Notes under the pieces: generated by a model
What the model saw: the letters and a program-made list of their open reading frames with translations, nothing else
What the model was told of the DNA's origin: nothing
The model's database searches: none
Shown: piece by piece, positions 9,320-33,830 of the stretch
Layout: each line of letters starts with the position of its first letter
Numbering within the stretch: position 1 is the stretch's first letter
Assembly: GCA_021432655.1 (NCBI GenBank)
Contig: MU271425.1
Coordinates: forward strand, 1 to 47,753
Length of the DNA: 47,753 bases
DNA from: Atractiella rhizophila
Lineage: Eukaryota
Reading direction: 5' to 3'
Program-made: the position numbers and the translations under genes

Positions 9320-10790
9320 TTTGCTGTATGCGGTTCGAACGGCGCCGACACGCGTATTCTGTTGGTATGCTCAGAATTCTGACAGGGTTGTTGCGGGCAG
9401 TGATATAAGAGCTCAAAAGTACATGCATGAGTCATGGTCAAACCCGTTGTGCTTTTTATATAAGGAGGATGTTTTCTCTTTACTACTGCCCTGTTCATCC
9501 TCCCCAAGATATCCCTCCTTCTGTGAACACAGCTTTACGCCAGTCTACGACCGCTCCAAGGTGGTCATTCGTGACCACAGGAACATGCGAGAGCAAGGTC
9601 TTCGGATAGACTGTGCGTCTGTCGCAGAAGCAGAGATGTCGAAAGACACATGCATTAACTGGAGTACAATCTGGTTTCGCTTTCCTGGTGTTGTTTTCCC
9701 TTGGTCTTTTGCCCTGGACTTTATGCATCTTATCTTTGAAAATATTATTCGCAATTTGCTTGCTTTTTTGGAGAGGCGAGTTCAAAGGATTAGATCACAC
9801 CGAAAAAGGACCCTACGTGTTCAACGAGCCAATGTGGGAAATGATTGGCGGCGAGATTGAGAAGATGAACAAGTTGACACCATCTATCTTTGGACGACGA
9901 GCACGGAACATATGGAATGACCAAGCCAGCCTGACAGCAGAAGATCTCGCCAACTGAATCCTCATTCAAGGTCCTTATGTCCGTGTCCTGCGCGGTCCGG
10001 GACGCCCGCCTTCCAACTACTACAAGCATTTCCTTGACTTAAAAAGATTGTCATTTTGTGCTTTGGCTATCGGCTCGATTCAGAAGGTCGAGCGGATGTG
10101 AGAGAGCATGTTGAGTGAAGGGAGGCAGATTATGAGCGGTAAGATATTTGTCATCCTCCGAGATTATCCCGCCATCTCTCACAGCTATTCCATGTCGCTC
10201 TGCTCTCCCCTCATTGTACTTGAAGTCAGAGCAGAACTTAGCAAATTTGGGGTTCAGGCTTTACTATCAGTACGAGTATCAGCGACTCTCTGCTTGCCCC
10301 TCCGTCCTCCATCGCTTCCTCCACATTCCTGACTTCCACGACTGGATTGGACCTTCTTGGGCAACATGGGCGTTTACAGGAGAGCACCTTTTCGGCATTC
10401 TCAAAACACATCTTGGCTCCCGTATCCATCCTTACGAAAACCTGATGAACCACATTGTCCAGATGGAGCAACTACGACAAATCAAGATCAAATATCATCT
10501 TACGTTTGACTCAGATAATGGCGGAAGCCTTACTCAAGGGAAAAGAATTCCGAAGTACGCTTGCTGCCTCCTCCATCCTTCGAAGGGACTGACTCTTTCC
10601 GATTTGTCGGAACATGAGCGCCGAAACCTCCAAAGGAGCTGGAAGAGGAGGGGATTGGACTTAGGGAGTGGGGGAAAGTAAAACTTGATCACAACGGTGA
10701 TACACTTGTCACTGGGCGGGGAGGATCAATACAGAGCGACTTTAGTCAATGTCGGAACTGGTGCAGGGTGCGTCTATCCTCTTTTCGCAA
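9320..10790 (+). pseudogene. Fragmentary CACTA/EnSpm (Tnp2-like) transposase, C-terminal half
   Basis: Motifs LDFMHLIFENI, PSIFGRRARNI, HRFLHIPD, IGPSWATWAFTGEHLFG, HPYENL are spread over several frames. No termini were identified. Confidence 0.75.
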
Positions 10791-11028
10791 GCTGATAACT
10801 AAGGAGAACGGCAGATTACCACCCACAGCAGCTCCAAAGCAAGCGCAAACAGACTGCCACGTCGTCATTTGCCACGTCGTCATTTGCGACCATCAACCAT
10901 ATATAGAAAGGAGCTTGAATGACTGGAAACAGTTGGATATTAAGCGATACGAGAACTTGACACGTATGCTGTCACCACTTCTTTTCTTCCAATCAGAGTA
11001 CTGACGCTACGAGAGGACACAGGACGAA

Positions 11029-11440
11029 ATGTGGTTAACAGACGCCCAAAAAATCGGTGTCGGCCTCACCTCCTTCGGCCTGCTCTTCTTCTTCCTCGGT
11101 GTCCTCCTCTCCTTGTCACTTCTCCTCGCCCTCGGCAACATCCTCTTCCTGGGCGGAGTAGTGCTCCTGATCGGTCCACAGAAGGCTGTTTACTTCTTCG
11201 CTCGAAAACAAAAGCTCTGTGGAACACTATGCTTCGTCATTGGGATCGTCCTCGTTTTCAGGAGACCATTCGTGGGCATGTGCGTGGAGAGCATAGGATT
11301 CCTCAACCTCTTTGGGGACTTCTTTCCCATCGTTCTCAGCTTCTTACGACAGTTGCCGGTTGTGGGAAACTTCTTGCTGTTGCCCGTGTGCAGGCAAGTG
11401 ACCGGATGGGCTGGCAGGTGTTAAACAGAGCCCAGTTTAG
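11029..11440 (+). pseudogene. GOT1: Got1/Sft2-family Golgi transport membrane protein, intronless, probably a decayed copy
   Basis: MWLTDAQKIGVGLTSFG...LLALGNILFL...IGPQK...FFARKQK...GFLNLFGDFFP...FLRQLPVVG is the Got1 signature. The usual FFD motif before LLALGN is absent. A 1-nt shift near 11404 would give the ending TDGLAGVKQSPV* (stop at 11438-11440). Confidence 0.85.
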
Positions 11441-14400
11441 GCGTAGGATGTGATGGGGGATATGGATTTGGCTTGGAGTTCATCTGGGCAGATTACATAT
11501 TGTATGACGAGAAAATGACACATCCTAGGTTCCGCTGTTCCTCAACGACTGGGACCTGTGACTTTCAAGTTCACAGTGGTCACTGTATCTGTCAACAACG
11601 AACTGCTGTGAACCGATGTCTTCGTTCCTTAGACGGAATAAGACTATCATTTCTGCCTTTATATGGTGCAATGAGGTTGCAATACCTTGAGATTTTTGAG
11701 ACGGACCACATCCTTGAAGAGTACCAACTTCTAACATTCTTCTCTTTCTTTGTCACAGTGCATTACTAGTATACTTTCTTCTTTATTACTTCTCTTTTTC
11801 CCTCGTGAGAGCAAGAAAACAAGGAAAACACAAGGACCTAACCCAAATTGCACAAGCCTGCGCAGTCGGAAACTGTGCAAGAAGGGACAATCGGGATCGT
11901 CCTCTGAGGTTCTATGCACTTGGTGATATATTCCTTCGCCCTCCCAACTCTCTCTCGTAGACTCCCCAGAGAGACCGACACTATTTTCAAGCATTTCCTT
12001 ACAACTCTCTAGACTCTCCCCTAGACACAGTGCTGCCAAGAAACAAAAAATGAAGGTCTCTCTTTCGCTATCGCTCTCTCGTCCCTTCTCGCGGCCATCG
12101 AGGCTGTTCATACAACAGGTGGTCGTCATGCTTTGAGGCTTCACAAGAGGGGCACATTGGACAAAGAGGATTCCACGGACAGTATGTCTTTCTTCTCTCT
12201 TCCCCGAACTTGAACTTGAGCGAGGTCGCCAAAAAATATGCCAAGCCTTTGTACTGGCCCCTGACTGACTGTTTCTTTCTTTGGTGGATGACAGAGCGAC
12301 TTGGTGGGATGTGGAGGACTCCGACCTTGCTGTGGAGAATATAACAAGCTGACGGAATTCGGTCGGTGCGTTGATGGAGGGGAGTATTGGCTATCGCTAG
12401 GATCACATTTGCTGCCATTGGATGTGCTCTCTATTCGTCAATTGTACAACTTCCTGCTTGTCACGGTTGATATCACGGACGGCGGGAGACTATGAAGCAA
12501 ACATGGCGGGAGAGTTCAAAGCTTTCACTTCTCGTACTTTGAGGCTTGAACTCGAGGACACTGAAGATTTCGAGCTATATAACAATAATGATCCGTACAT
12601 TCAGTTACTGCTGAAATGGCTTCGCCTTGTCCAATGTCAAGATCCATCGCATATTGGGTTAGCAAATCGATTCCGCTAGTAAGGCTCAATCTCTCGTCTA
12701 CCACCAGTTTCACCTACAAGAGCCTCAAGTGGTGTAGTTCAGCGAGAGGTGCTTGGAGGTGCTTTAATCTCTGTGTCACTCTCCCCCAATTTGTTCTAGT
12801 ATACTCGCTTCGATATGCTACTATATTCCTCGAATGTCTCTTTACTCCAAACACGTCTGCTCCACTAGCGAAAGTCATTGTCATATTGTTAGGTAGAGAT
12901 GGCAACTCAATTGACGCCATTCGAGTATAAAAAGCCCTACACAATCTCTCAGACAAGGTCACATTTTCTCATGCATACGAAATCATAATGTTTTTGATCA
13001 TCAAACAACATCAAACATCCAATCGTACTTAGCGATATAGATGGCTGCACGCTCCAAAATCGGGCTGTCAGAGATGGCGATGCGGTTGTCACTTGCAAAC
13101 GGTCGATTTCCTCGTCAGAAAAGCATGGTCATTCAATGATTATTAGAGTACAACACCTCTTGAAACTCCATGCCCTCATTGCTCAAACTGGCCAACATGC
13201 AACCAATGCAGCGAGAAAGGAGACGAAAGAATGGTAACAGTAATTTACATTTTCAAATCTCGACGCTTGGAAAGATTCTCTGCGTTACTGAAAAAATATG
13301 CTGGATAGTTGTACCTGGAGCAGCATCACGGGGTTCTGGAACGGGTTCCGTCGGCACGAGTGAAGACGGGTGAGAGCCATGGTGCGATCCCAAGTGAGAA
13401 TGATGGCTTGAGAGACCTTTCTCACTTCCCCCGCCTCCAGACCCGGTTTGTGCACCTGATTCTTGATCTGTACCACCCGAACCGCCACTGGCCCTTTGAA
13501 AGACTAGCTGCAATTGGCACTCTAGGTTCTCCATTCTACCCGTGAGCGTGACGACTACAGCCGTGAGCCCAGAATTCTAGCCTCACGTCTTCTTCCCTCA
13601 ACTCCCCCAACAAATCTCCTCCATCCCCATTTGTATATCACTTTCATCTTGAGGATTGTTCCACCATCTCTCTGTCGCTTTCATCCTCACATTGAAGATT
13701 TGGTCCCTAATCAAGATCAAGATCAGACTGATTGGGCTGGGCCATGTTGAGGCGATAAGACTGAAGATCAGAGGCTGGGTGCATGGGATTCCGTTGCTGG
13801 AGCTTGAGCTGGGCCTTGAAGGCACAGGGGATGCTCCGTGGATGTATGAGATGGCAGTTGGTGTTCGGGTTCTTCAAACAGACACCCAAAGACGTGATGG
13901 TATCAACGCATAGAGCTGCACTTGTTTCGACACGCATCTTGTCATCCTCTTCTTTCTTTTTCCTGGCTTGAGCTCTGATGTGAGGATATGGTGATGAAGA
14001 ATCCCTTGTAGGCCTTAAGGTGTCTCGAAGACGATGGTAAGGCAAGATGGAGTTGGAAGAAGTGGAACTCATTAAAAGATGGGTTAGGACGATGTTCACA
14101 ATAAATATTATTATGATCATCACAGCATATCTAGGGGCTCAGATAAGGTGAGACTCTGCTCTGGCAATGCTTAAATCAGGAATTCTAATAAGACTACCCT
14201 GTGCAGATGTGCATTATGCATGCGTTAAGTTCAGACATTGCAATTCCGCCGGGGCAAGTGGACGACGACAAACACTTTCCGTACTCCACCTCTTTATATT
14301 ATCAGCTCACCTAACCACTATCAACGTTCCCTCAATAACCTCTTGTTCATACCTCCATCGAGATGTCATGAAAAGAGAAGTCCTTTTCCCTTCACATCCA

Positions 14401-14514
14401 AATAGCCACTTGCCGCTACCTGTTATCGAATCTTTTGTTGGAGATAAGCGACAAACTGTGACAACTATAGTCACATGAGTGCCCCGCAATGCCCCGCAAT
14501 GTAAAATACACATA

Positions 14515-16124
14515 GGAGGATGACAGACCATCCCAACCCCTAATAATTCCAACAAAATCAACTCTAAGAGTTGTAGACATTCTGGGCATTGATGAAGAGA
14601 CCCAGAATGACCCTGTCCAGCTTCTGGACTTTGCCTTTTTAGAATTTCGCAATATGTGCAGGAAAAACAAGCTCAAAAATGCCAGAGGAGAATTCAAAAC
14701 GGATCAAACCGTAGTAGACAACATTAGCACTCTTTTTAAGACTGCCATTCAGATGCTGAAGCTAGACCCTCTCAGCGAAATGTGTCACATTACTTGTAAT
14801 CAAGCCATTGCGAACAATTCAATCGATTTGATCCTAGACAGACTAGAAGGGATTGAAAGCAAACTCTCAGAGGGAGTCTGTGTTCATGATACGAACACCA
14901 TCCGACCCACCTGGGTGCCAGATGCAAATGACTTCCCTCCGCTTAGCCTTCTCCCCTCAGTTCTAGCACCGACGAACGCTCCCACCCGTTCCAGGGCAGC
15001 TTCTAAGAAAGCTCGCCAGAGGCGAAATCGCTCTAGAAAGCTGACACTTTTCCCTCCCAATGACTCCGAAGCCCACCAAGTTGATAAATCCGAAGCGGAT
15101 TTGCTTGCTCAAGTTAACGAGGCCCTAGTCAAGAGATTGGTCTTCAGAGAACCGATTAGGGACAACACCCCGGAAGAACAGGAGAATAGTATCGTCACTG
15201 CTTCTGCAGTGGACAAACTACCTGGAGGGGAGGTTGACTCTATGGTTCAATGATACCATCGATTGCGACAGGGCATCGCAAACCTGCACAGAGTGGCTAG
15301 ACGCTTGCGGTGAACTCAAGGGCTTCACCCGAAATGTTCCAACGGACGTTGTGGTGATTCGCAGAGTCCAGACCGATTGGAATATAAGGGACAAGAGTCA
15401 GGTCAAGAGACTACTCTTAGACTGCAACAACTGGACAGAAATGGATGTTCTAAAGCTAGAATGGGTCTCGAAGAAAATTTTCAAAGACAAGAATGTAGAA
15501 AGCAACGCTCTCAAGAGCTTCTCATCCTTGTTGATTTTCTTCAAAAACGGAAAAGTCGCGGATGAAGCCATTGAAACAGGGGTGTTCTTCAATGGTCGAC
15601 ACCTCAACACCGAAAAATCGATTCGAGCCTTGCCACAATGCTTTAATTGCTTCCAACTAGGACATTTTGGTAGAAGCAGTCATAGAAAAGACAGGCCTGT
15701 TTGCAGAGCATGCGCAGAAGAGCACGATACAAGATCTTGCACAAAGCAACTAACCTGCTTCATGCAAGAAGGAACAGACCCATCTCCATGTGGAGATAAG
15801 ACCCCGATAGGTACACTCTGCTCACACGTGAGGGTAGCATTACGCTGCGCTTACTGTGGCGAGAAAGGACATGGCGCACACGGGGCCAATGGAGGAGACA
15901 ATTGCCTTAGGAAGAGAGCTGACAGAGCTAAAGCGAGATTAGTTGAAAGAGAACTAGGAGAATACTTTGAAAGGGATGAATGGGATGATGAACCCGAAGG
16001 GGCACCCATTCATCAAGAGGATAAAGAGGAGGGAAATGACGGAAGAGAACAGACGCCCAAGCTTGAGATGGGAAGTGAAACAACTGAGTTGCCAGTATTG
16101 AGCAACAATGAGGTTGTAGAATGA
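14515..16124 (+). pseudogene. LINE ORF1 (gag-like, Cys/His zinc knuckles), frameshift near 15240
   Basis: QCFNCFQLGH, CRACAEEH....C, CAYCGEKGH. The frame is open back to the element's 5' edge, which implies truncation within ORF1. Confidence 0.85.
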
Positions 16125-19100
16125 TAGAAGAAATCTTTACATGGCCTGATGCAGTCAGCGACACCAGTTCAGAGAGCGGTTTGGTCCCACCACACACTCC
16201 AGCAATGGTTCCAAACTCATCCGCCTCTAAAAGAATTCTAACAATCATTCAGCAAAATCACCATAAAAGAGGAACTATCACACACTCATTTCTACATTCT
16301 GAAGACCGTCTGGCAGACATCATTTTAATTCAAGAGCCTCCCACAGTTCTTCCTGACAGCGGGACATTTATTCGTTATCCCAGTTATAAAACAATTGCTT
16401 CAAAAAAAGCAAAAACTTCAGACTCTAGATCAGAAGTCTCCCGCTCTGTTATTCTTATCAATCTTAATACATTTTCGGGAGATTCATTTGTGGAAGTCCC
16501 CAGTAAATATCCTGATGTTTCAGCAGTGGTGATTTCACTTAAAGGGGGGGAAAGCTTCTTCGTCGTAAACGTATACAATGCGGCAGGGGGCAGACAGACT
16601 ATTAACAATGTTATGTCACTTTTAATGACGCCAGAGAAAGAGGAGCATTAAAAGAAGAGGACCTGATATATGTAGGGGGGGATTTTAACCTGCACCACAC
16701 CGAGTGGAACCCGGAAGGGTACATACGCACGGATGGCAACGCAGACTATCTCCTAGAAAACATGGAGGAGATGGGTCTAACCCTACGCTCTCAATGAGGT
16801 GTCCCAACATTCATAAGTGCCCTGGGACACGAAACAACCATTGATCTTATCTTCACTAATGAAATCGCCAATGAGTTCATAACATATTGCGTCACTGACC
16901 GAGGGGGAAACAGTCACAACTCGGACCACTACAAGCTAGTGACCAAGCTTTCGCTCCTTCCCCCAGCATTCAATCCATGTCGCCACTACAACCTCCAAAC
17001 CGCTAACTGGGAGTTGGTAAGAGAACACCTTCAAAAATCTGATCTGTTGGCAGGTATCCCAGGGGACATGGACGAACTAGCGACGAAAGAAAACATCGAT
17101 GCAGCGGTCGAACACCTCACCGCAGCGCTGGTTGACGCCATGAAACTGATCCCCAGAGTTTCCAAGAGTCAACCTACGAAGCGATGGTGGACGGAGGAGC
17201 TGTCAGAAAAGCGGAAAAAGGTCAACAAGCTGCGTAACAGGTTCCTCAAAGCGAAAAAGAAAGGCAGTGAGGAATCAATGGAGGAAGCTCGCTTGACCTG
17301 GCGGGGAGCAGCTAACCAATTCCATGCAGACATCAGACAAGCGAAGTCCCAGCACTTCGAAGATTTCCTCGCCGACCTGGACAAGAACTCCATTTGGACA
17401 GCTCACAAATATGGTAAAAGGGAGAACGGTGTCGCGACATCCCACCTCTCACTAACCCTGACAGCCTTGAAGACACCGTATCCTCCCCAGGGGAAAAAGC
17501 CTCCCTATTCCATTCCTCCTTCAATCCCTCAGCACGCCGATGTGACCTTTCTGACATCCCACATCCCCACACCCCTTCTCCAGCTCCCTCCCGCCCCCTA
17601 AAGATTGAAGAGATTGACGAAGCTATAGATAGAATCAAAACGAGTTCTGCGCCAGGACTATCGGGCATCTCCAACAAGATGATAAAGGAGGTTAGGTCGG
17701 AGATACGCCACCATCTCTTCAACATCTTCTCCGCCTGCTACATTGTTGGATACTACCCATCGTCCTGGAAGCACTTCACAACGATCATCCTATGGAAACC
17801 TAAACGAGCCGACTACTCCCTTCCTTCGGCCTACAGGCCCATTGCCCTCCTAGACTGCGTTGCGAAGGTTTTCGACGGCGTTATTTCAGCCAGACTCACC
17901 TTCCATGCAGAGAGCAATGGAGCGCTCCCCTCCCATCACTTCGGAGCTAGGCCAGGTAGATCCACCAATGACGCCCTACTAACAGTCACAGAGTTCATAA
18001 GAGAAGGCTGGACGAAGGGAGAGGTAACAGCCTCAGTTTCACTGGACGTAAAAGGGGCCTTCCCCACAGTAGTTCACACTCATCTAATCGACGACCTCAG
18101 GAAGAGATCAGTCCCAGAAAGCGAGATCGACATCATTGAGGCATGGCTGCGAGACAGACAAACGACTTACAACTTCGACGGATACACGTCAAAGCCTTTT
18201 GTCCTAGGAATTGGACTGGCTCAAGGATCTCCCTTATCTCCCATCTTATACTTGTTCTACAATGCTGACCTCCTTGACATACAGGCTCCGGAAGGGGACT
18301 CTCTCAAATGCGGGTTCGTAGACGACGTCCACATGAATGCCCGTGCGACGAACCCAGAACGGGCCATTTCCAACCTCGAGGTGATGCTCGACAAGGCAAT
18401 GGCTTGGGGTGAGAAACATGGTGCTATTTTTGAGGAGGCCAAGACGGATTTCGTCCTTTATGGTAAACGTAAAAAGATGAAGTCCAGATTCGGCAACCTC
18501 ACTATTCATGTTGAATCTACAACCATTATGCAGTCGCTGGAAATGAAACACCTAGGAATGCTCCTTGATTCCAGGTTAAGCTTCAATTCCCACCTAAAAG
18601 TGATTGAGAAGAAGGCGAAATCATCGCTCTCACTTCTGCCGACCCTCTCCAATACGACGAAAGGCATCCCACTTCTACACTATCGGCGCCTGGACGAGGC
18701 TGCAATCTGTGCAATGACAGATAACAACGCAATCATTTGGCACCATCTTGGAAAGAAGAGTGGCGGCGCAGCACGGCAAGAAATCGTTCAACGATACGCT
18801 CAAAGACTCATGCTCGGAGCCTTTCGCACCACCCCTACAACGGCTCTCTCCTATGACTCCAACCTTCCGCCAGTGGTGGCTCGCCTCGATAAAACGATTA
18901 CTCGAGCAATGATCAGACTGCTCTCCCTCCCGGACTCCAACCCAGCGGGCAGGATCGCAAAAAATATACTCAACTCTGCTCAACCCAAGAAACACCTCTC
19001 TCCTCTCAATTCACTCCTCCTCTCCGACAAACTCAACTTCTCCAAGGACCTCGAAATCATCCCTTCTTTCACCACCCACCCTGGCCACTCACCACCTTTC

Positions 19101-19558
19101 GACATCTTCATAGCGGACTCAAAGGAAGACGCGATGCAAGATTTCAAGAAGCTAAAGCAAGAAGAGGATGAAATTTGGATCTTCACGGACGGCTCAAGGA
19201 CGGAGGATGGAGTGGCATGCGGGCTAACGATGACGGAACCGGAGAACAAAGCGGGATACAGGATCAGCAACCAAGACGATAACACCATCTTCGAAGCGGA
19301 ACTAATGGGGATAGATCGAGCCTTGACACTGGGGATTGCGCTCAATAACTCAAGAGGAACCGTCTCGTCTACACGCATTTTCACAGATTCTCAGGCCGCA
19401 GTCAAAAGTTTATCGAAGAAACCGAAATGCAAACCTGGAGTCAGCTTGATCCTCAACATCAACAAGCTGGCAAACAGATTCCGAAGGCTCTTCCCCACCA
19501 GCTCCATCTCTCTCCATTGGATCCCAGGCCACAACAACGTCAAAGGCAACGAGCTAGC
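16121..19558 (+). pseudogene. LINE ORF2: APE endonuclease, reverse transcriptase and RNase H, with frameshifts and an internal stop
   Basis: APE: DIILIQEP, GDFNLHH, TTIDL, SDH. RT: YRPIALLD, SLDVKGAF, GLAQGSPLSPILY, FVDDV. RNase H: IFTDGS, FEAEL, FTDSQAA, WIPGHNNVKGNELA. Confidence 0.95.
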
Positions 19559-20060
19559 CTCGGTTGAAGAAGTCATCCTCGTGAGCTTTTAATGAGGATT
19601 TCTGGGTAGTCAAGTTTCCTCCACTCACAAATCATAAATAATCGAGTGAACTAATGCCTTACTTCGGCTGGAGCACAAGCATTCCGATCCTTAGAAAAGT
19701 AGAGAAAGGAAGTTTTAAGACCGTATGCGTCGTGAGCTTTACTTAGTTGTCAAAGAACCGGACTGTCGGTATGACCATACTACCATGTATAACTTGTGTT
19801 CGACTCGCCAACACGCCAACGCCGTTAACGCTTACAAAGCGAAGTATTAGAGGGTCGCTCGTGTGGTGAAACCACTGTTTCGGAGTTGATGCAAAAGACG
19901 TTGCTGTCTTGAAACAAACCGTGTCATTGAGTCAGACGTTAAGTCGCGAGTTTGCCGTTGAAGACCTAGAGCTTGAGTACATCTTTCCCCCAATTTACTG
20001 GTTTTACACGGTAATAACAGAAGTTTAATTCACAGTTTGAAGACCACAATCAAACGTTGA

Positions 20061-23000
20061 ACCCTACCGATAACACGGCCGTTTATGGCCGACCTGTCAC
20101 AGGCCACTGCCACGGCCTGAGGCAGGCAGGTGGTTTTGCTTTCTGCTGGTCAACCTGCTACTGCTCCTGCTCCACTCGTAATAGGGCAGGCAGGGTCTTA
20201 TCGCACCTGCTGCCGAAGGCCATCCTGCCAGACCAAATATCCCCCCCTCGCTCTACATCGTACCCATTTCCTTGACGCCCGTACATTTCTACACAGTCTT
20301 CCATGCACGAGGGACCAAGGACGAAGTCCAAGAGACTTTGACTCCTCGTTGCTGAGCTAACGTTATCCGAGAGCGTGTGGAATTTAGTGTCACACGTTCT
20401 CGTTAGTGTACGGGACCTTCCAACCTTAGGTCAGGTAGAGCAAGTGTGTGTACAATCATTGTATCAGTATCTGATGTTTACACTCCGTGAATTCTTTAGG
20501 GACTTGGTTCTATAACTGTATGTCTAGGTGCTCCGCTTAGGCGTTTTACATTTCAAGTACGTTGATGGCGTTCCGTTGCAGGTTTTCGGAGTCGTGGCTG
20601 ACGAAGGTAGAAGCGGGAAGACTTGTATTCTCGGATCCTTAGGGTATTTAGGTCGCGAGTGTTGAGGGTAGTTAGCTTCGACGGTATTTTACCGACTTGG
20701 GTTACCGTCCGGCAACGCCGTCGCCTGAGAGTAACTATACCACTTCTCCTTGTTTCTCCTCTTGCTTATCTGTTGATTCAGCTGTTTGCTTTTTCTTCTC
20801 AGCTTCGTTTCTCCGTCACATTCCTATGACCAAGTATGCGTCGGATCTCTACGAGCATGATTCAGAGACTAACTGTTTACTTCGTCCTACATGCTTGTCG
20901 GGACCGATGCTCGTAGACGTCGCTGTAGCATCGCGGAGAGTTTTACTACTTTTTCTTGGTGTTGGTGTATTGAAATACTGGTATGATTCTCGTCCTAGCG
21001 AGAGTAGTATGTAAAGGAGTTGGTTGCAGTGAAGCGATGATTGGTTCTAACCTGAATCTCGGAAGTCGACCTAAGCCGTGAGACAGATTCTTCCGTTGAA
21101 GTGAAGAAGTGGTGGAACTTGAGGTACAACGACTTTTACTGCTTCTTGGTAAAGTGAGCCGTAAGAGACTATACCGACTGGTTTTCGGCAGCTATGGCCA
21201 AAGGTCTGTTCCGTACGTTTTCGGGAAGCCTGAGACACCAACTGCCGTACGTCTGTCAGATTTTTGAAGTCTCTATCAGGGGAATTGTCCTCAAGCACGA
21301 ATCTACGGGCTCCTTCCCTCTTTCAGATCAATGGTGACGTGTTTTTCAAGTACGTCGAAATCGGCGGCTTTGGCCAGACGCACTTGGTATAGTCTCTTCT
21401 GTGGTTTAATGTCAACGTGCTTAGACTTCTGAGTCTGCACCAGTACGACCTGGAAGTTCGTTTTTATCGCATGTTGGTCCGGACTCTCGAGTCTAACTAT
21501 TAGTGCACTCCCCCGCCTTTTAGATGTTTTCTTTGTCCACAGATTTCAGCTACTCTTTGTTCTTCGTCGTTTTCTAGTCAGGATGTAACCGGTGAATAAA
21601 GGAAGTAGTGTATGAATGTGGTATCTCCCACTAACTAGGATAGTTCCACGGTAGGCGTCGTTCGTAGAGGAGGTCTGACCTGTTATCGGGCAGCTCACGA
21701 CGGTAAAGACGCGTAGTTTCGCCCACTGTCGGACGTAGGTATGTCATCTGCTCGGTTCCAGTCCTGCCATGCTGCTTTCTACTAAGAACGGACGTATTTG
21801 GGTACAGGTACATAGGCAGAACCATAGTGTGGTGACTATACACCGTGCCTCGGTCCTTGCTGTGTAAGGGTCCCAGCATATGTAAGTCTAGGTAAGTAAA
21901 GAAGTGTTCCAGTTCTGGTTGTCATTTGGCACCGTTTACGTCGTCAAGCTCGTAAGCGGTGATAGTTCTCCCGCTATCCATAATGGTTACGTCGGTAGAC
22001 GTGAGTTGTCCACGAGGCACAGTGGTTTCGCTCATCTAAGGTTGATGTTCCCTGAACGATTTGTCACGAAGTGCCCCTTAGTAGAGGTTGGTAGGCGTAT
22101 CATAGAACTCGTCAAAATACTGGAAGAGTTTATCGGTTTTTCCTAGTTACTGAACCTCTATTGCGTGTCTCCTTACAACTATTCCGTCGACCTTCTTAAT
22201 TTCGTGCAACAGGAGTGACTTAACTGCAGTGAGGAAGTCCATGACTTGACAGGAAAGTCTAGTGTCTGTGCCTAAGCCGATTTTGACGTGATGACAGTTT
22301 GACTCTCGAGTCTGCTATAAGATTTCGCGAATTTTGCCGTCATGCCCAGTGTCCCTCGTCTTTTAACCTGAGTAACTGTATGGGTTTCGAGTACGTTACG
22401 TTGCGACTAACGGGTACATGAAAATGTCGTCAGCAACTTGTTGCTCAGAGAACTGCTGGAGGAACAGTTTTCGAAGTCAGTGCAGGGGTTCCTCTGTTCG
22501 AAATCGAGACTGGCTTTTAGGGCTCAAGTCTCTCAACCTAGACTGGTACAATGTAACCTGAGCTAGTGTTGCAGAACTTTGTACACTGTTGACTTCTGCT
22601 CATGAGTTTCAGGACGACCCTACAGGGGTCTAGTCTTTCTCGCATAGATTTTTCTGACTTATTCAGTCTCAACAGGTTCAGCTTTAGCCAATTCTTCCTG
22701 TCTTAGTACTTCTACAGCCTCGTCTCCTACGTAGTCGAACCTTGCTCAAATGCACCTTCAGTCAAATGAGATAGCTAAGAGTGTATAGTCAATTAGTACA
22801 CTTAAGTTCCATCGCATACTTTTGTATTTCAAGTGGAGGAGACAACCTACGGACCTGCAGCTGATGAAGGCAGCTGATATAGGAGGTATATCGAGTAGTA
22901 TAGTTACTACTAACCCTTGACCTTCTTTAAACGGAGCTGAAGAGTCTCGAAGAGCCATCGGTGTGACCCCTGTTGTACCGTCTACAACAGGACTTCACGA

Positions 23001-24959
23001 ACCTAGCGATAGTATAACGTGTGTACCAAACAAGGAAAGGGACCGAAGGACACAGGACGACAGTGAGTTGAAAGGAAGTGTGAATCGAGCCTTAGGACTA
23101 CTGCCTACCACGCTCATTGTTGTTTTACGAACGCCTTCCGCAGCGTTCTCTAGAACGGTTCTCCCCCTAGATAAAGTCGCGTATGCTTGCGGTAGAGTTA
23201 ACGTACGGTGTACAGTAAGTAGAGCGACGGTAGCGTGAGGAACTTTGGGAACTGCAGACCGGTTTCCTCCGCTTCTCAGGACCACAATAAATAGTTCTCA
23301 CACAATGCTGGCGCCGTCTCCTTCCCCTACGCTCAGTCGATCCACTTCTTCTCAACTGACCCCTCAGCCTACTACGACAATACCACTTTGAGTTTCCACG
23401 CTATGGTTTCCAAGCGGAGGAGCAGTGACAGAGTCGGCGTTTCATTATCTTTTCTACCTATAAGATCGAGTCCCGCTATTAGTTCGTGGATGCATCAAGG
23501 AGTGTTGCTGCCTTCTCGACCAACGTTGATGACCTTCTACGATAACTCTGATAGCTCTTGTACAGGCTACTCTGCAACTCTTACGGCTAAGAGCTACACG
23601 CCTGAGCTACCTCCATATGCGTACTGTACGAACTAGACCGACAATCCACGGCCCTTCGACACTTCCGTATACACCTAGCAGTACTGGAACTCAGCGAACG
23701 GAACAGTCTTCTCCTGACCTTACCCTAACTTGACCATACTAATCAATAGAGTGTTCACAACATAAGAGACTATTAACGGTTGGACCTCGTCCGTTGGTTC
23801 ACTGAGCTCCAAAAGGTGTTACGTTGCATACTGTACAGATACTGCTTCTTGAGGACTGAAAGCGTTTGAGAGCTACACAAGGTGCCCAACGAGGTTGTAG
23901 ATCTTTGGAGATATGCCCTTAAGGGATAGAGGGAACTATGCTTTATGGCAGCTCGTGAGCAACTACGAATACTGTTCGAACGTTGAACCGTGGAGTTTAG
24001 TCTACGGAGAGACATGGGACAAATAAGATATGCACTCAGGAGGGAAGACAGTTATTTAGCAAGAACTACGAGTCTAAACGGAGCAACAGTCAAGATCTGG
24101 GTGCCTACCCATAGTTCATAACACTCGACGGGCATAAGAGGTTACGTCTGGCTTTTCTCTAACTCTCCGTGTTTCTGTTGAAACGCTCGAGACAAAGCCT
24201 CTCTCATAACGTCTCGTGGTTGAGGAAGGTAACAGCGTAGTCTACGAGTTCTACTTGTCGCTCCAAGTTGTTTGAGTTCCTTCTCCTTTGCACAGTTGGA
24301 CCGTCGGCTAGATTACTCCATAGTTCCGTCACGGCCAGTTGGACTTCTGAACCGAGTTTTTCTTGAGCTAGTAGAAAAACTTGTATTCGTTGAACTGACC
24401 CGGTAGTTAGGCGAAGATAAGACCTTTCTTCTTAGCGTGTTCTTAGAAGGGTTGGAAAGAGCATACCGTGTCCTATAGGAAAGGTACGGTCCTTTCATTA
24501 GAGTACCGTCGAAACCCATCGAACAACTACGGCTCATATCTCTCACGCCACCGCCATCTCGCGTAAAAAAGACCACGAGCACTATGGTAACCTTATGCTT
24601 CTCGAGCGAATCTAGGACTTAGATAAGCTCGGGAGTACAAAGAGTTCCAAAGTGACTCCTACGTGGCACTCTTCTCCTAACGACTCGACTTCGCTCTCTA
24701 CCTTTTCCGTAACCCGTAGCCCTTATATGTGATTCAACTCGTGTAGCCTAGAAGTTCCCATAAATGTATAAGACCGTGCGTTAGTTATATTAGTAAACGT
24801 GAGCAGGACTTGGCAGGGAAGCAGGAACTGGCAGGGCATGAAGTTCAGCGGGTTGGGGGAAAAGCTCCGGTCACCCTGCCCTATCCTGCTCCTGCTGTTC
24901 TTGTAGTGAGGCAGGCTGGTTTAGACGCGGCCGGCGTTTGCCCTGCTGTCGGTAGGGAT
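20061..24959. mobile_element. hAT element hidden in the mirror block (read as the base complement, left to right)
   Basis: The complement translates to LLDAWTS...GSHTGDNMA (22841), TDGASNNK (about 23100), CMPHVIHLAA (about 23200), ILDVRTRW...LSEEDW (about 23590-23720), NPLLFWK...LSRMAQDILSMP and AVERIFSGARD (about 24400-24600). The ends TGGGATGGCT and AGCCATCCCTA are TIR-like. No TSD was seen. Confidence 0.88.
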
Positions 24960-25043
24960 CCAGCTTCAAGTCAACTAGTTCAAGAATTCAAGAACGAGGC
25001 CTTACGTGTGAAATCGGTTTATCGCTGTTGGCGTGCACCTCCG

Positions 25044-26061
25044 AACAACAACAACAACAACACTAGTATAAAGTCTCGAAAGTCTGATATCAGTTGCATC
25101 GAGATGTAAACCCCTATAGTGTACACTCTTTTACTTCTACAATTGTCAGGTTGTTTCATTAGAACCTCCAACTTAGTCTTGGCTCTTATAACGCTGCTCT
25201 TTCACATTTCCTATACTTTTTTTCCGGGGGCCATTAGGGGCAATTTTAAATACAACCGCATCTTGCGTTCTTCGCCTACCCCCAATGATTTAGCGCTACC
25301 GATAACACACCAACCCAACATGCTCTACCCCTAACTGCTACATAAGTCAAGGAGGAAACGATATTGGAGTACCATGTACACACCACCATCTACCAACACA
25401 AGGATCCTCGTTATGGAATCTACCCAGTCACTACTCTAACCTACATTGAGCAAAAATCAGAAGGGTGAGGAGGGACTTGAGAAGAAGGAGGGGAGATGAA
25501 AGGCGGTAAACGAAAGCGAAGAGGAAAGAAGACAGGTTCTGAGAAACACGGGAAAACTAGGTATCCAACTTAAAGGGTGAGAAGGCCTACTTAAGGGTGT
25601 GACGAATGCAACGGAGGCCAAGCGAATTTTCCAGGAAGTCCCTAGCCTTAGTTTGCAGAAAGAAGGACTCGGACCGGGACTCGAAGAAGGAAAGCAGAAG
25701 CACAAGGAGCGTAAGTTTTTTATCCACCCACTGGCACAGCAAGTAAGGTGTCTTCAGCGTCATACCGAGTAGGTGCTGGGGCTACGCCACCTCCATAACC
25801 AACAACCTCTACACAGGCGACGGCTCAACATGCTTCTACCTACGAACTCGAGCACCGTAGAGGAATTCGTAAAGCTTCCAGACCAGGCTCCTCTCCACTG
25901 CTCTATCGTTCACCACCACAAACGGCCGTCTCTCACAGCCCTCAAGCGACCCATCCTTGGTTGACCAGCAATAATACCGGAAGTCACGCCTACCCGAAAA
26001 GCGTTACTGCTACACCGGACAACGACTAAGCCCTAGGCAGCGCGACAACCGGCGGCACAGG
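25044..26061. mobile_element. 3' end of a paralogous LINE copy in mirror orientation (RNase H end, CCHC finger, 3' UTR, (CAA)6)
   Basis: The reversed reading gives DTAANSAT...QLGSGHISNNQYLHRIG...CDFCGMNDTVTHLFFEC, then the UTR and tail, followed by a flank different from 31104. Confidence 0.95.
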
Positions 26062-26086
26062 NNNNNNNNNNNNNNNNNNNNNNNNN
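26062..26086. other. Assembly gap of 25 N
   Basis: Run of 25 N. Confidence 1.
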
Positions 26087-26105
26087 CCATACTGCGACTT
26101 CTGTG

Positions 26106-29100
26106 TAGGCTTGGTACACGGGGAACCCATGGCCCCGTGGGTTTTTCCGGGAGGTTTTGGGGCTCTGATGCCATCCCGTACCCGCCCTCGAACCCTCAAG
26201 GGTTTCCCCGTCGTTACAGGGGCATTCCCGCAGGATTGCTGGGAGGGGACGGGAGCCAAAGGGTTCACGGGACACTGACGGGATGGGAGGGGCGATATCA
26301 ATATTATTATCCACGTACTCTGCTAACCTCTCTGCACAGTTCAATAATCATTAATCATTCACCTATCAATCAATCAATCAATCATCATGCTTCCCTCCCC
26401 GCGCTCCGCCTTCTTCCTTGCCGCCTCTGCTCCCTTCCTCTTCTTCCTGTCATTCTGTTTCACAGCTCCAAATAACTCCTTCATAGGAGGCATGAATCCA
26501 TCCTGCTCCCAGAGCTTGAGCATCATGGCCGAACGAAAGACGGGGTCCGACAATTGATGACGCAAGTAAGAAACCGTCAGACGACCCCCTGAAAAGGCAC
26601 GCTCAACATCCACCGAAGTTGCTAGCATCTTCAATCAATGTAAAAAACAGAGATGAATGAAGCTGCATACCTGGGACTGCCATAATATCCATGGCCATCT
26701 CGTGGAACTTCACACGGAAATGCTCCTTTGCACGCTTTGCCTCTCGCCATTGCTGATAGTGGTACTTGAGGCCATCTAATTCTGTTGTCCCAGAATCATC
26801 CTGCAGGGTCTTGATAGGCAACGGGACACCTTTGATAAACTCTACAAGGTAGTCGGCAGTAGAGGTATCGTCTGCATCTTCAATCATTGCGTTGAGTTCG
26901 TACAATGTCCGAGCCTTCTTTCGTAGGCGTGGCACAGAGGTGGATGCCTGTGAGCAACAAATTAGGACTTAATTGTGGGAAGGAAAGTATAGAGGTTCCG
27001 GGTTGGACGCACAGAATTACCCGTTGCTGCTTTGTAATGCTGCTGCTGAAACTCCTGTAAGCTATCCATGGCTTCCATGATCCAAGCCTCTTCCCAATCC
27101 AATTTTCAAGTATACAGCCCGGCGGTTGGGATGAAGCACTTGAGTATCTGTCAGTTTCAATGCTGAAATGTTTGAGTAGTGAAAACCTGCAAAGAGCCCA
27201 TAGATAGATCTTCGAATCTTCAACTACTTTCAGAAAATATTTGTCCAAAACTGCCTGTGCAGTTACAGCGCCGGCTTGGACAGCAGCGTGCTTGTCAGGG
27301 AAGTGGATTTCGCCATCAAGCTCGTAAGTTTCATAGAGGCGAGAGAGATGGACACCGATATTATTGAAGAGGGGGATGACACTGGCTAAATTGGAGAAAT
27401 TGGCCCTCGACATCCAGTCTGTTGCCTGTTGGAACAGCTAAAGCAAAGTCTTAGCTTTTGGATAAAAAAAATAAATGGGAAAAACATACTTGCAGGGTCA
27501 GATTTGCTTGCTCCATAATTTCCCACTCCGTTCTTGTCAATCGGCATCGCTCAAGTTGTAAGCTCGGTTTACCACAAAGATTTCGCAATGCGTCCTTCAA
27601 GTCTATTGCTCGATCAATCATCGCACCTTCGCCATTCCAACGTGTGGGACAGGCTTTGACAAGGTGCACAGGAGGAGATAGAAACTTAAGAGGTCCTTCA
27701 GGATCCTCTTTTTGGAGAGTGGCAACCTCGTCGTCAAGTTTGCTTCTAAGCCCATCATTCAAGGCTGTCCTTTTGGCCAGATTCGCAAGCTATTTTGTTG
27801 ATTAAAGGACGGTGAAGGTGAAAGACAATGCATGCAGCGTACCTTCGTGAGCATGAAACGTGCCTCTAATTCTTCCTTCGGAGAACAAGTTGCTTTCACA
27901 GCAGCCTCTTCCCGAATTAGATCAATTGCAGCCGCTTGTGGTTGCACTTCTTCACTTTGGTCTATAGCAGAAGCATTAGATTGTTAGACCAATTGGCTAA
28001 ACCATACCTTCTAGTTCTGCTTCTTCAGTGAACCCCGACTCTCTCAGTTCTGCTTCCAATTGTGATAATGCCACTTCATCCGCAGTGACGGAAGTCCCAA
28101 TGCCTGCTATGACTCGTTTCTTCGTAACTGGCTTCTTGAAACGACTCAAAAATCCCTGGACATTGCATCATCTAATCAGTCTCCCATCACATTTTACTAC
28201 CAGAACCATACCTTTGCAACCAAGTTGAGTATGTGGTCAAAGCATCGCACTCGCAAATCTGCTCTCCAGAGAAGCATCTTCAGATACTTGACCCTGTTTT
28301 CCATTGCCATTGTGAATGTATCGTTGTTAGACGCACTGTCGCACGTTGGAGCCATGACCTGCGCAGAATGTCAACTCTCGAAGAAAGATTCCATGCGCAG
28401 ACTTGAACACGCACCCTCTCGCACACTTCATATGAATCCAATAAGCCATAGACCAAAGCAGCAATGTTATCTCCCGTATGTGAATCAAGAACCCTGTTCC
28501 TAAATTAAATGGGTTCTCACAATGAAGGACTTTGTACCGAATGAAACCAAGAGCAACTTTCTTTGCATCTCCCCGCTCGCGGAAGTGAAGGTAGACAAGG
28601 ACATAACTGAAGCCCTGAGGAGCTGTCCAGCCGTCCAGCGTAATGAAAAAGTTCCCAGGAGCAGCTTTTGACAGTTATTAGTATTGTTTACAGGATTCAA
28701 ACTCGGCACGTACCGAAATTCTGGCCTTCACCTTAGTGCGCACGTACTCCTGCAAGAATTTCGCATCCTCTACTACTCTGTGACGATCAATGTTTGGAAC
28801 ACTCTCTGATCCACCGTTCCCAAGCTTGAGGATCTCTCGGAAATAATGATCGTGTGTGACATTGAACGGACGAGCTGAAGTGGTGCAACAGAGAGCGGCA
28901 AGGACACGTCGGTAAGTGTCATGGTCCGTCTGGTCCATCACGTTGACCCATAGCTGATTCTCGCTGACCACAAGTTTTGTTTGCTGGCTCTTTGAAGATC
29001 CTTCGTCGCCCTGTAGACAGTCTTCTTAAATCCTTACCTAAAGCTCACAAAAGACCAACCTCAACACATTTGTCGGCGCTAACTTGCAAGCCTTTGGTAC

Positions 29101-30387
29101 TTCCGTCATCGCGAGCACGTTCATACGTGTGGTTCGGGTTGGTCTTGCAGACAAACGTGTAGAAAATGCGAAGTTCTCCTGACTTTCTACCAGATCGCGT
29201 GTCCCTCAGATAGGTACCGCGACGAAGAATTGGGCGTTCGTGATAATGAAGATATACGCTCGGTTTGTCGCTATTCTGTTGAACTTTGGACCTTCCCCAG
29301 CGTTGAATATCGAAGTCTATTGTAATATCAGAAAGAGATTTGGATGGAGTCTCGGAAGAAGGCCAACCAATGATCTCATCATCCTTCCAACCGTCAAAGC
29401 TGCTGTCCATCTTGAAGTCCACCCCTCGTGGTAGTTCCCGAGCATGCTTTCGAGGGGACCTGCGAATGGAATCCCCAACATCATCATCTGATGAATCAAG
29501 CTCGATGGTAGCAATATTTTGAGGGTCAGGGGTTCGGCAGGGGCTCTGATGACTGGTGTCGGAATTCATCGAATCTTTCCGAGTGTGCTTAGACATGATG
29601 GAATACCAGACAAGAAATGAGTGCAAGTGATTGCCAGGAAATCAGTCCTGTTTTATAACTTTTCGCCTCTGGGTACGGCCGATAGAGGCAATCCTCTACC
29701 AATTGCAAGGTCAACAGAGCACACAGATGCGGTATGTCATCCCCAATGGACTCGTCCGAAGCAGGCACTGACAATTTTTGTGTTCCAGCAGCCAGACAGA
29801 AGCTGCCGATAGCCATCAACAGCACATTCATTTGCTGGGAATTTGAATGTTTCATTTATTTCTTCATGCTGCTCTCATCGCAGGGACTCAAACCCATCTG
29901 CACTGTTCATTCAAGGAGGAGCACATTCGGTACACTCAACTTCAGAGAACTTCTTTGGAATCACTTAATTTTGCCAATATTCTCATCCGGGTTCTTTCAG
30001 AAGCAGATTGTACTCTAACCTTTTCATAGCTCTTTCTCCTATGCCCGCGCAGAATCGAGTGGAAGGCATCCAATTCTCTCTCCCGCTCACCCATGACATA
30101 AAAAAGGAAGGAATGACGGACTGTTTGAGGACTGTTTAAAATCTCGGGCTCTACTTTCAAGTTGGGACGGGAGTGAAGCATAGGATCAAGCATGAACTTG
30201 TGCACAGTTGCTCGAGAAGCTGTGCAAACCCACGGGTAGCCACGAGTTTCGAATTCGTAAATGTGTTTCCCGTCCCCTTCCCTTCCCCAGCAAGGATTTT
30301 GCCGCCGCTCCCGTGGGATCCCCTTAAGGGGAAGGGGATGGGAGGGTCACAGGTTTTGACGGAATCCAAAACCGTGTACCAAGCCTA
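26106..30387 (-). mobile_element. hAT DNA transposon, 4282 bp, inserted in the LINE zinc-finger region
   Basis: Perfect 16-bp TIRs TAGGCTTGGTACACGG (26106-26121, 30372-30387) and 8-bp TSD CTTCTGTG (26098-26105, 30388-30395). The mirror LINE copy carries the empty site. Confidence 0.97.
26374..29596 (-). pseudogene. hAT transposase, multi-exon, probably disrupted
   Basis: RPFNVTHD, CDSASNNDT, RCFDHILNLVAK (CxxH), CPTRWN, AMDIMAVP, SVDVERAFSGG (dimerisation domain). Confidence 0.88.
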
Positions 30388-30395
30388 CTTCTGTG

Positions 30396-30688
30396 GAATG
30401 AACGACACGGTCACCCACCTATTTTTCGAATGCGAGGAACACGAAGACGAAAGGAAGAAGCTCAGGGCCAGGCTCAGGAAGAAAGACATTCGATTCCGAT
30501 CCCTGAAGGACCTTTTAAGCGAACCGGAGGCAACGCAAGCAGTGTGGGAATTCAGCCAGAAGAGTGGGAAATTCAACCTATGGATCAAAAGGACACAAAG
30601 AGTCTTGGACAGAAGAAAGGAGAAGCGAAAGCAAATGGCGGAAAGTAGAGGGGAGGAAGAAGAGTTCAGGGAGGAGTGGGAAGACTAA
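30396..30688 (+). pseudogene. C-terminus of LINE ORF2 (end of the CCHC zinc finger)
   Basis: GMNDTVTHLFFEC...EEWED*. It joins PYCDFC at 26087-26105 once the hAT is removed. Confidence 0.9.
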
Positions 30689-31082
30689 AAACGAGTTACG
30701 TCCAATCTCATCACTGACCCATCTAAGGTATTGCTCCTAGGAACACAACCATCTACCACCACACATATACCATGAGGTTATAGCAAAGGAGGAACCGAAC
30801 ACATCGTCAATCCCCATCTCGTACAACCCAACCACACAATAGCCATCGCGATTTAGTAACCCCCATCCGCTTCTTGCGTTCTACGCCAACATAAATTTTA
30901 ACGGGGATTACCGGGGGCCTTTTTTTTCATATCCTTTACACTTTCTCATCGCAATATTCTCGGTTCTGATTCAGCCTCCAGGATTACTTTGTTGGACTGT
31001 TAACATCTTCATTTTCTCACATGTGATATCCCCAAATGTAGAGCTACGTTGACTATAGTCTGAAAGCTCTGAAATATGATCA

Positions 31083-31103
31083 CAACAACAACAACAACAA
31101 CAA
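31083..31103 (+). repeat. (CAA)7 LINE 3' tail
   Basis: Lies directly before the right TSD. The mirror copy has (CAA)6. Confidence 0.9.
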
Positions 31104-31147
31104 TAAAATACACATATACCCTGCTCACAAGGATTTTTTCCCTTCAC

Positions 31148-31227
31148 GCTTCCCAGTGTGATAAGAAGAATCCTAGGTGAGTTTCTTCTGCAATGTATGC
31201 TTCCCAGTGTGATAGGAAGAATCCTAG
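31148..31227. repeat. Two copies of a 29-bp direct repeat (one mismatch) separated by 22 bp
   Basis: GCTTCCCAGTGTGATA(A/G)GAAGAATCCTAG at 31148-31176 and 31199-31227. Confidence 0.9.
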
Positions 31228-31242
31228 TCTCAACATCTTTAT

Positions 31243-31860
31243 GTGCAGGAGCTTGAGTTGAAGGTGTCTGAGCTGAAGAGCTCTTTGGCAAGGGAACAGG
31301 TGGATAAAGATAAGTGGAAGAAGTTATACATGGAGAAGGATGAGGAGGTGGATCGTTTGAAGCTGGAGCTTGACAAGGCTAAGAAGTTGCTTCTACCTGC
31401 AAACTTGATGTTGAAACATCACACAGAAAGCAGGACGATGACACCTTCCGAAGCTGGTGCTGATTCTTCAGCAGACGATTGGATCAAGAAGCCTGTCAAA
31501 CCGTACCGGCCCGTCATCAGCAAGGAAGATGCTGACGAACTTGGGATCTTTTGGGAACGCAAACAAGCTGCAGCCTGCATGTGAACTGGTATTCAGAACA
31601 ATATCCTCGATCCGGTCCAGGTGCTGCACCAGCTTGTCTTTGACGAAACGGGCAATACTGTCGTCGTAGCAACACAGTTCTCGAGGAGAACCGCTGATGT
31701 CATACGAAATGATGCGACCTTCTATACGAAATCCTATCTGGACACTACGAAATCGATTAAGAAGCAGACTGGACTCTGCAGGACCATATATCTCCCAAAT
31801 ATCCTTCGTAGGCTCGAGGCATATTCCAGCTCAGTTCTCTGCCTTGTGAAGACTAACTAG
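31243..31860 (+). pseudogene. Hypothetical coiled-coil protein fragment of unknown family
   Basis: Glu/Lys/Leu heptad-rich ORF at 31243-31584, continued in frame at 31621-31860 after a stop. Confidence 0.35.
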
Positions 31861-32244
31861 ATAGGCACGAATCTTCGTAACATCTGTTCTAAGGAATACC
31901 AGCGGAAGTTCATACAACAACGAAGATGAACAGGACTCTGGGGATGCCCAGGAAGGAGGCCGGACTGTTATGAGAGGAGTGAAGAGGAAGCACGATGTTG
32001 ACGGGTTTGTGGGTTTGAGGGAAAAGAGAAAGAGAGTGCAGGTTTTCGAAGGAGATCAAGGTAAGCGGCTCTCATTAACGTGAACTTAAAAGGGATTGTA
32101 CTAAACAGCCCAGTAGAAGGTCCAAGAGTACCAGAGAATTTGAAGATGCAGAGCAAGAAGAGAGCGAGAACAATCATGCACACACATCCTTTATGTGTCA
32201 CTTATGTGTCACAGACCCCATCATGCTGATTCATTTGTTTTCTA

Positions 32245-32509
32245 CAAGTGTATCAGCGGCCTTCGTCCCTCAGGCCCCCCAACCCACTCGCAAGGGGCAT
32301 GGCCCCTTGAACCCTACTGTGACTGTTGTGAGGGTGAGGGTTCGAGTCCAGTATGAAACGCATTTTTTTATCCTTCAGAATAAAATTTCCTTGCAACTTC
32401 TGAAAGTGGCAAGCATATGGGCTACGATGGTATAATTCATTTCATTTTATTGTGCATGGTGAGGGAGGTGCGAGGGCTCAAAAGTGCGTCTTATGACTCA
32501 TGCCAAGAA
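32245..32509 (-). mobile_element. Non-autonomous Helitron-like 3' terminal segment
   Basis: CTTG|T end (32248-32245), hairpin GGCCT-n9-AGGCC and GGGGC-n4-GCCCC-TTGAACCC, alignable with 3749-3815. About 260 bp is shared with 33545-33804. Confidence 0.65.
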
Positions 32510-33544
32510 ACCCAACGCTCTTAGAAGAATAGATCAGGCTGACTTGCCAACTGATCCACTCAGGGCAAACATGACTTGGACCAGTCAGGACGAGGTACTT
32601 AAGAAAACCTACCCATCCAGCATTATTAAGGCAGCAATCAGTTTGTCCCCTTCTTTTGGCCATGTTGCCTTCTGACAGGATGATAGATGAGCTCAAAGCT
32701 ATGGTTATCGATGACCATTGTCTCACTAACCCCAATGTACTCGGCACGTTCATCATGGCCGGAGTACTGCCTCACTTCCATGCTGATTCCCATACAAATG
32801 ACAGTGATACGCTTGCCCAAACAACTACGAAACGCCTTCTAGCAGCCATCACATGTGCGGGAATATGATGTCAAGCTTCCAATCACTACTGACGACAAAG
32901 AGTACACCTCTGAGGACCTGTGAAACAACTCTCAAGGGGATACACTTGGCCACAACAGCCTTGGGGAGGAGAGCCTGTTCGGCTTGAGGAGATGGGAGAA
33001 TGTGGGTTTGCAGGAGGCGATTGGAGATCTGCTGCGAGCTGTGTGAAAGGTGCAAAGATCGCACAGCGGTTGTGTCAGCGATGGAAGGAAGGACATCCTG
33101 ATTCAAGGGAGGCAGCACCTTTACGTCTGAGCTTTAGCTGCATTGGAAGATTGGCGGAGAGTATGGTCGAAGCTTAGCTGGATGGAGGTCGCAGCAATGC
33201 TGTGACCATGAAGTCCTTTCTTACTCTTGCAAGATGCTGTTTAAGCTGATTTAGTACAAGGATGCACAATCAGCCAAAGAACTCAAGGGCACCATGGTAC
33301 CGGCTGAATATTCGAAAGCACTCCAAGATAAGATGCAGCTTCAAGATCGCCTTGCAGATTCGATCAAAATCGCAAAGGAGAAGGTTTCCGAAGTCGAACA
33401 ACGTCAGACTTATCATCCCCCTCTGCACTACACCGGTTGTGGTCTGAGTTTGTTATATCAATGAAAAGGAGAGTCAAGAGCTCAAGAGCAATTATCTTTT
33501 ATGATTGTTCCCAATCATTTCAAAATGATCTGCCTTTATAACAA

Positions 33545-33830
33545 CAATTGTGTCAGCAGCCATAGTCCCTCAGGCCCCCCAACCCACTGGCAAGGGGCTA
33601 TGCCCCTTGAACCCTACTGTGACCCTTGTAAGGGTTCGAGTGCAGTATGAAACACATTTTTTGACCTCTACAGAATATAATTTCCTCACAGATTTAGAAA
33701 GGCGTAAAAATGTGGAGTAAGATGGTATAATTCATTTCATTTTAATATCCCTCATGAAGGAGGTATGAACACTTCAACGTGTGTTTTATGACTGATGCTA
33801 AGAACGGATAGCTTTTAGCTGTAAGGATAG
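33545..33830 (-). mobile_element. Second, more diverged copy of the Helitron-like 3' segment
   Basis: Direct repeat of 32245-32509, for example GTCCCTCAGGCCCCCCAACCCACT and GATGGTATAATTCATTTCATTTTA. Confidence 0.65.

Follow-up and report, generated by a model that had tools for sequence, protein, structure and literature searches.

A string-reversed, uncomplemented block beside a 25-N gap in a LINE of the Atractiella rhizophila assembly, very probably a gap-filling artefact

Organization of the locus

The window, that is, the whole stretch of DNA analysed here, comprises 47,753 nucleotides of the Atractiella rhizophila genome assembly (contig C246:1-47753, GenBank MU271425.1). The assembly totals 51.5 Mb in 1,998 contigs. 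Between positions 13800 and 31500 the window shows a four-level nesting: a repeat common to contigs C128 and C189 carries a short host repeat (14436-14514 plus 31104-31236, about 200 bp); inside the latter lies a LINE, and inside the LINE a hAT-like element. The record of this LINE is broken by a block of 6,503 nt that ends at a run of 25 N. The features, in order, are as follows.

14502..14514, plus strand: LINE target-site duplication, 5' copy, 13 bp (TAAAATACACATA), identical to 31104-31116
14515..19558, plus strand: native LINE 5' part with the ORF2 piece 17418-19556, cut off at 19558; paralogue matches run from 14563
19559..26061, no strand assigned: mirror block, very probably a gap fill entered in the record as its plain string reversal; the reading direction is leftwards from 26061
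19559..20059, no strand assigned: reversed flank of a hAT copy, matching the end of contig C1043 (489/494 identical)
20060..24959, no strand assigned: reversed hAT-family element matching copies on contigs C12 and C238, with no target-site duplication
24960..25043, no strand assigned: spacer of 84 nt, 81 nt of it unmatched among the fetched loci when reversed
25044..25766, no strand assigned: reversed LINE 3' end (finger, 3' UTR, CAA tail) without the inserted element, mirroring 26087-26105 and 30388-31100
25767..26061, no strand assigned: reversed LINE piece, in agreement in length and content with the 295 nt that the native LINE lacks
26062..26086, no strand assigned: 25-N gap
26087..26105, plus strand: resumption of the native LINE, 19 nt, the last 8 nt being the left copy of the target-site duplication of the transposon that follows
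26106..30387, minus strand: hAT-like DNA transposon within the native LINE, with 16-bp terminal inverted repeats and an 8-bp target-site duplication (26098-26105 / 30388-30395)
30396..31103, plus strand: native LINE 3' end with CAA tail
31104..31116, plus strand: LINE target-site duplication, 3' copy, 13 bp, identical to 14502-14514

Pfam identifies a reverse transcriptase (RVT_1, PF00078, E 7.9e-23) and an RNase H domain (RNase_H, PF00075, E 4.7e-8) in ORF2 of the LINE, which we take to be Tad-like. Its upstream frames (14516-17601) are in several pieces, and public contigs differ from the window at many places there; decay of this particular copy or errors of assembly may account for it. The 4.3-kb element at 26106-30387 has five near-full-length copies at 96-97%. 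Five of its ORF pieces were searched and gave no Pfam match, so that the hAT label rests on its anatomy.

Elsewhere in the window, a Helitron-like replication domain (PF14214, E 1.8e-56) is encoded on the minus strand at 6378-7988, with helicase-like frames at 5052-6130; Pfam returned no match for six of the eight window proteins searched. An inverted pair (1197-1603 / 41420-41824, 67%) and a direct pair (32244-32509 / 33544-33804, 78%) are probably old transposon pieces.

The block read backwards

When the window is reversed without complementation and compared with itself, a single match is found: 25044-25756 against 31100-30387, with 97.9% identity over 714 columns (E 0.0). A preliminary description, made from the sequence alone, had already given 25044-25755 as the mirror of 30388-31103. 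It had also proposed that the reversed reading completes the RNase H motif and runs on to a zinc finger. This is indeed the case: forward ORF2 (17418-19556) joins the reversed reading in frame at 19558 and continues through the end of RNase H and a CxxC..H..xxC finger to a stop. Five paralogous copies of the LINE agree with the forward sequence at 97-100%, all of them up to 19558. The same five match reversed bases 1-1015 at 97-98%, starting one base after the position at which each copy's match to 19558 ends. The self-match, the in-frame junction and the five paralogues thus bear out the central claim of that description, namely a mirror-image block, reversed, not complemented, and in frame with the LINE that it interrupts.

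Matching the reversed string to the genome had been suggested as a check, and 6,422 of the 6,503 block bases match fetched loci of the same genome once reversed. As written, the block matches itself and two other places only, on contigs C509 and C185, both beside N runs. It contains no stop-free frame of at least 150 aa on either strand, and the translated matches of its forward and reverse-complement readings are confined to these two gap-side blocks. Coding potential of the block as written was rejected on these grounds. Its content is ordinary LINE and hAT DNA and includes no new biology.

Orientation was also scored by a reference-free model applied to 500-nt bins. Trained on contig C1 only, at orders 2-4, the model called 13/13 block bins reversed and 0/82 of the other window bins; at order 5 the corresponding figures are 12/13 and 2/82.

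The true gap

The native LINE restarts at 26087, which corresponds to reversed position 296. In the five paralogues the two native ends lie 295, 295, 295, 294 and 295 nt apart, and this intervening stretch is identical to reversed positions 1-295 at 286-291 of 295 bases. The earlier statement that the native LINE resumes past the N gap, and that the part it lacks equals the first 295 nt of the reversed reading, therefore holds in all five (294-295 nt). The comparison supports a true gap of about 295 bp within this LINE, which is present in many copies.

The 13-bp target-site duplication was not found after the tail inside the reversed block, where the best shared word is 6 nt. In empty-site copies, the two host repeats run on uninterrupted over both native flanks (for example, C337:44722-44800 and 44788-44920). 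Taken together, the duplication and the empty-site host repeats indicate that a single insertion spans the left and right contigs.

Donors and error profile of the fill

Read backwards, the block consists of a LINE 3' end (1,018 nt), the 84-nt spacer, the hAT-family element and about 500 nt of C1043 flank; the last three parts, some 5.5 kb, go beyond the preliminary description. The block lacks the 26106-30387 element and has a different 3' flank. Comparison with the native copy and the paralogues supports the earlier suggestion that it comes from another locus, and the 97-98% match of five paralogues to reversed 1-1015 supports a paralogous LINE as the source. The donor of the LINE 3' end was sought among five close paralogues, none of which carries the block's 3' flank. 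The spacer, which is presumably the 3' flank of the donor LINE, includes 81 nt (reversed 1020-1100) that have no match in the fetched loci, C70, C413 and C1413 included, and an orientation score near zero.

The hAT element in the block is about 96% identical to the C12 and C238 copies over 22861-24959 (2.1 kb); over about 20260-22860 (some 2.6 kb) it is insertion-rich and far less similar. Both copies score above the cut-off for PF05699, and this, with the terminal inverted repeats, identifies the element as a hAT. An 8-bp target-site duplication was not found around it; the two flanks differ, while those of the C12 copy match at 7 of 8 positions. The far end of the block is donated by the end of C1043: the next best match in the genome to the approximately 500-nt flank reaches 85% and covers part of it only. 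Since the hAT copy has no target-site duplication, the fill possibly joins two loci and may, judged by its flanks, be a chimera.

Long reads carry a known insertion bias. With the aligner set to favour gaps, the reversed hAT part shows 207 insertion events against 14 deletions relative to C12, and 59 against 3 relative to C1043; the control, the C238 copy, gives 8 against 4. The block thus departs from its source mainly by insertions, as would a fill derived from long reads, and we infer that the noisy middle of the hAT represents uncorrected long-read error. A diverged hAT subfamily was considered for this middle part and rejected: the C1043 copy, whose flank the block shares (489/494), is about 98% like C12 there and the block is not. 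Furthermore, the block's differences are mostly insertions of 1-2 nt.

Public contigs over the locus

Two public runs of one sample (X1 and X2) were compared with the locus. These are contigs, not raw reads, they are possibly the assembly's own source, and their records pass a filter that leaves some out. The share of the words of 9600-19558 present is 0.70 and 0.64 in the two runs. Over 13000-32500 the X1 and X2 contigs, which may be those from which the assembly was built, have depth 0 at 20161-26019, that is, in nine of the nine bins wholly inside the block. The values in the partial bin fit an end of cover at 19558 (62.5 = 830.6 x 49/651; 97.4 = 1293.5 x 49/651), where the paralogue matches also stop.

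At least one contig links 19558 to 30387 with 305 letters between them, the number expected for an uninterrupted LINE. This contig lacks the inserted element and is a collapsed multi-copy sequence (depth 831 compared with about 130-180 in the left flank); it therefore shows the structure of the LINE family, not of the window locus. Among the filtered X1 and X2 records listed, no cover matches the block as written in these nine bins. Missing read cover by itself is no proof.

Recurrence at assembly gaps

The preliminary description proposed scanning the flanks of every 25-N gap for other blocks that match only after reversal. By two-state segmentation we surveyed 52 contigs, which contributed 729,409 distinct bases and 18 N runs. 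The sample is biased, in that C509 and C185 were chosen for their block matches and the majority of the rest because they matched the LINE or a hAT; part of the same DNA also served to train the model. The survey found 12 reversed-like segments, 11 of which lie no more than 128 nt from an N run. The twelfth (C13:20542-21498) is a false positive, although still counted among the 12: its score is the weakest, at -24 bits, it lies near no gap, and it matches the LINE forwards. A reversed flank is present at 8/8 of the 25-N gaps (that of the window included, and one on both sides) and at 3/10 of the other gaps. Correctly oriented fills are invisible to the orientation test, and these counts therefore do not yield the reversed share of all fills.

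Reversed blocks sum to about 36 kb of the 729 kb in this biased sample. In a tile chosen blind (C1:1-170,000) they occupy 7.9 kb; of its four gaps, the single 25-N gap carries reversed flanks, on both sides (C1:66578-74465). Reversed-string matches in the fetched DNA were obtained for 8/12 gap-side blocks; for the other four (on C14, C37, C185 and C70) none was found in that DNA and their assignment comes from the orientation model only.

Whether a block lies to the left or to the right of its gap, the string in the record is the correct plus strand reversed; the sequence of the old contig end is carried on by the end of the block that faces the gap. After reversal the gap-side end of the window's block continues the flank in 5/5 close paralogues, and the same rule holds at C509, C1 and C6. 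At C6, two opposite fills of one gap (1716-4620 and 7533-10797) are identical at 384/384 positions once reversed and each reaches the far flank, as would be expected if a real 384-nt gap had been extended across from both sides. The two 25-N runs of C6 are separated by about 2.9 kb of forward sequence. In the DNA surveyed, the reversal fault is systematic in this record.

Some further places deserve mention. Beyond the window, on the same contig, a 25-N gap is followed on its right by a second mirror block (C246:55414-59728), whose reversal matches window positions 43706-46871 at 93-96%; the flanks to either side of this block overlap by 95 identical bases. Three other stretches (C262:49876-50343, C442:21544-21881 and C209:73548-73814) match other mirror blocks as written and are probably mirror blocks themselves.

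Origin of the block

We consider it nearly certain that the block is absent from the organism in this form and is a gap-fill artefact, a string reversal without complementation. The preliminary description had leaned the same way, and its reading is supported by the reversed continuity with the paralogues, the 13-bp duplication, the 295-nt gap, the kind of errors seen in the fill and the recurrence of such blocks at gaps. In the course of events that we envisage, a draft scaffold would have been interrupted, within a LINE present in many copies, by a gap of about 295 bp. A gap filler working with long reads would have used the LINE end at 19558 as its anchor and drawn its reads from another LINE copy. 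The resulting 6.5-kb extension would run from the 3' end of the donor LINE through the hAT element to the end of C1043 and, not being joined to the right-hand contig, would leave the 25-N gap. A strand-handling step that reverses without complementing would then have written it as the plain string reversal of the correct strand.

PBJelly is rather probably the program that made the fill. A 6,503-nt fill for a 295-nt gap, with the sides not joined and 25 N remaining, follows the pattern of its overfilled gaps. Flank extension and overfilled gaps are described by English et al. 2012 (PMC3504050), and overfilled gaps are also reported in PMC9635638 and PMC7757076, as far as the available portions of these papers go. 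In the parts at hand, one paper states, for short gaps, that PBJelly inflates them to exactly 25 bp (PMC6733440), another gives 25 as a default minimum gap (PMC6240028), and a third documents a lower accuracy of filled sequence (88.6-95.2% mean identity over three simulated sets; PMC8848313). A mark of 25 N for overfilled gaps, as the preliminary description had it, was not found in this text.

A different view of the same data, in which the orientation is still an artefact, is that the left contig truly continues into the reversed block and that the right contig, from another LINE copy, was wrongly scaffolded to it. In the portion of PMC3504050 available, 44% of the overfilled gaps in one draft are put down to scaffolding errors, and at C6 the reversed fills are the true local sequence. 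At our locus, however, the duplication at 14502-14514 recurs at 31104-31116 and not behind the reversed tail, and the empty-site copies of both host repeats pass continuously over both native flanks. We reject mis-scaffolding on these two grounds and regard it as very improbable. The most far-reaching explanation, that the block is real DNA produced by parallel-strand or 3'-to-5' copying that writes mirror copies into chromosomes, can appeal to the presence of the sequence in the record and to the fact that the read data examined are contigs and not raw long reads. We hold it to be wildly improbable: depth is 0 in two runs that cover both flanks, a family contig joins across, 11/12 reversed-like segments abut assembly gaps, the block middle carries insertion errors of the sequencing type, and C6 has a single 384-nt gap with fills from both sides. 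Templated synthesis runs antiparallel; its products are reverse complements, never reversals, and we know of no polymerase that writes mirror copies.

A variant that overlaps our preferred explanation, a gap fill written backwards, places the reversal after assembly, in a reformatting, patching or submission script, rather than in the gap filler. It has some plausibility, in that the literature searched yielded no paper on such a fault in PBJelly, although that program is widely used. On the other hand, each reversed unit runs from precisely an old contig end to an N run, and 8/8 of the 25-N gaps are affected, so that the step must have known the patch boundaries, and the 25-bp gap size is itself a PBJelly habit according to the accessible text of PMC6733440. 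We consider a later script possible, with the gap filler the likelier place.

The value of the finding is that of a data-quality warning: the record may hold many more reversed blocks. Such blocks mimic novel DNA, escape ordinary searches, split genes and inflate the genome. Findings beside N runs in this genome need an orientation test first, and the same screen would be needed elsewhere if a common tool is at fault. Tentatively, and with more doubt than confidence, we suggest that some gap-filling step in wide use has a fault, so far unreported, by which extensions that fail to close a gap are written out as plain reversals, and that many public assemblies are affected. If so, such assemblies would contain, next to 25-N gaps, kilobases to megabases of mirror sequence that conceals real genes and simulates orphan ones; a simple orientation score would detect all of it, and reversing it would recover the sequence.

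Comparison with known systems

In the literature searched, which excluded most subscription journals and software issue trackers, we found no paper on reversed, uncomplemented gap fills. The available sections of the papers cited above for PBJelly (PMC3504050, PMC6733440, PMC8848313, PMC6240028, PMC9635638 and PMC7757076) make no mention of reversal without complementation, and in this the block differs from them. In other respects, as far as these sections go, it resembles an overfilled PBJelly gap: a one-sided long-read extension far beyond the true gap, unjoined, with a 25-N residue and lower accuracy.

The host element is, in its general features, a fungal LINE of the kind that encodes reverse transcriptase and RNase H and ends in a finger. 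It shares with these the RVT_1 and RNase_H domains, a CAA-repeat tail, a 13-bp target-site duplication and the presence of many copies. The window copy differs from an ordinary one in that it is interrupted by a DNA transposon and that its frames are broken in the record. With hAT transposons (PF05699) the reversed segment 20060-24959 of the block shares terminal repeats and 96% identity over 2.1 kb to PF05699-bearing copies, but it lacks the 8-bp target-site duplication and its middle is laden with errors. Natural mirror repeats also exist: these are H-DNA-forming tracts, whose sequence equals its own reversal on one strand. They are short, low-complexity purine or pyrimidine sequences, whereas the block consists of kilobases of complex coding sequence beside assembly gaps.
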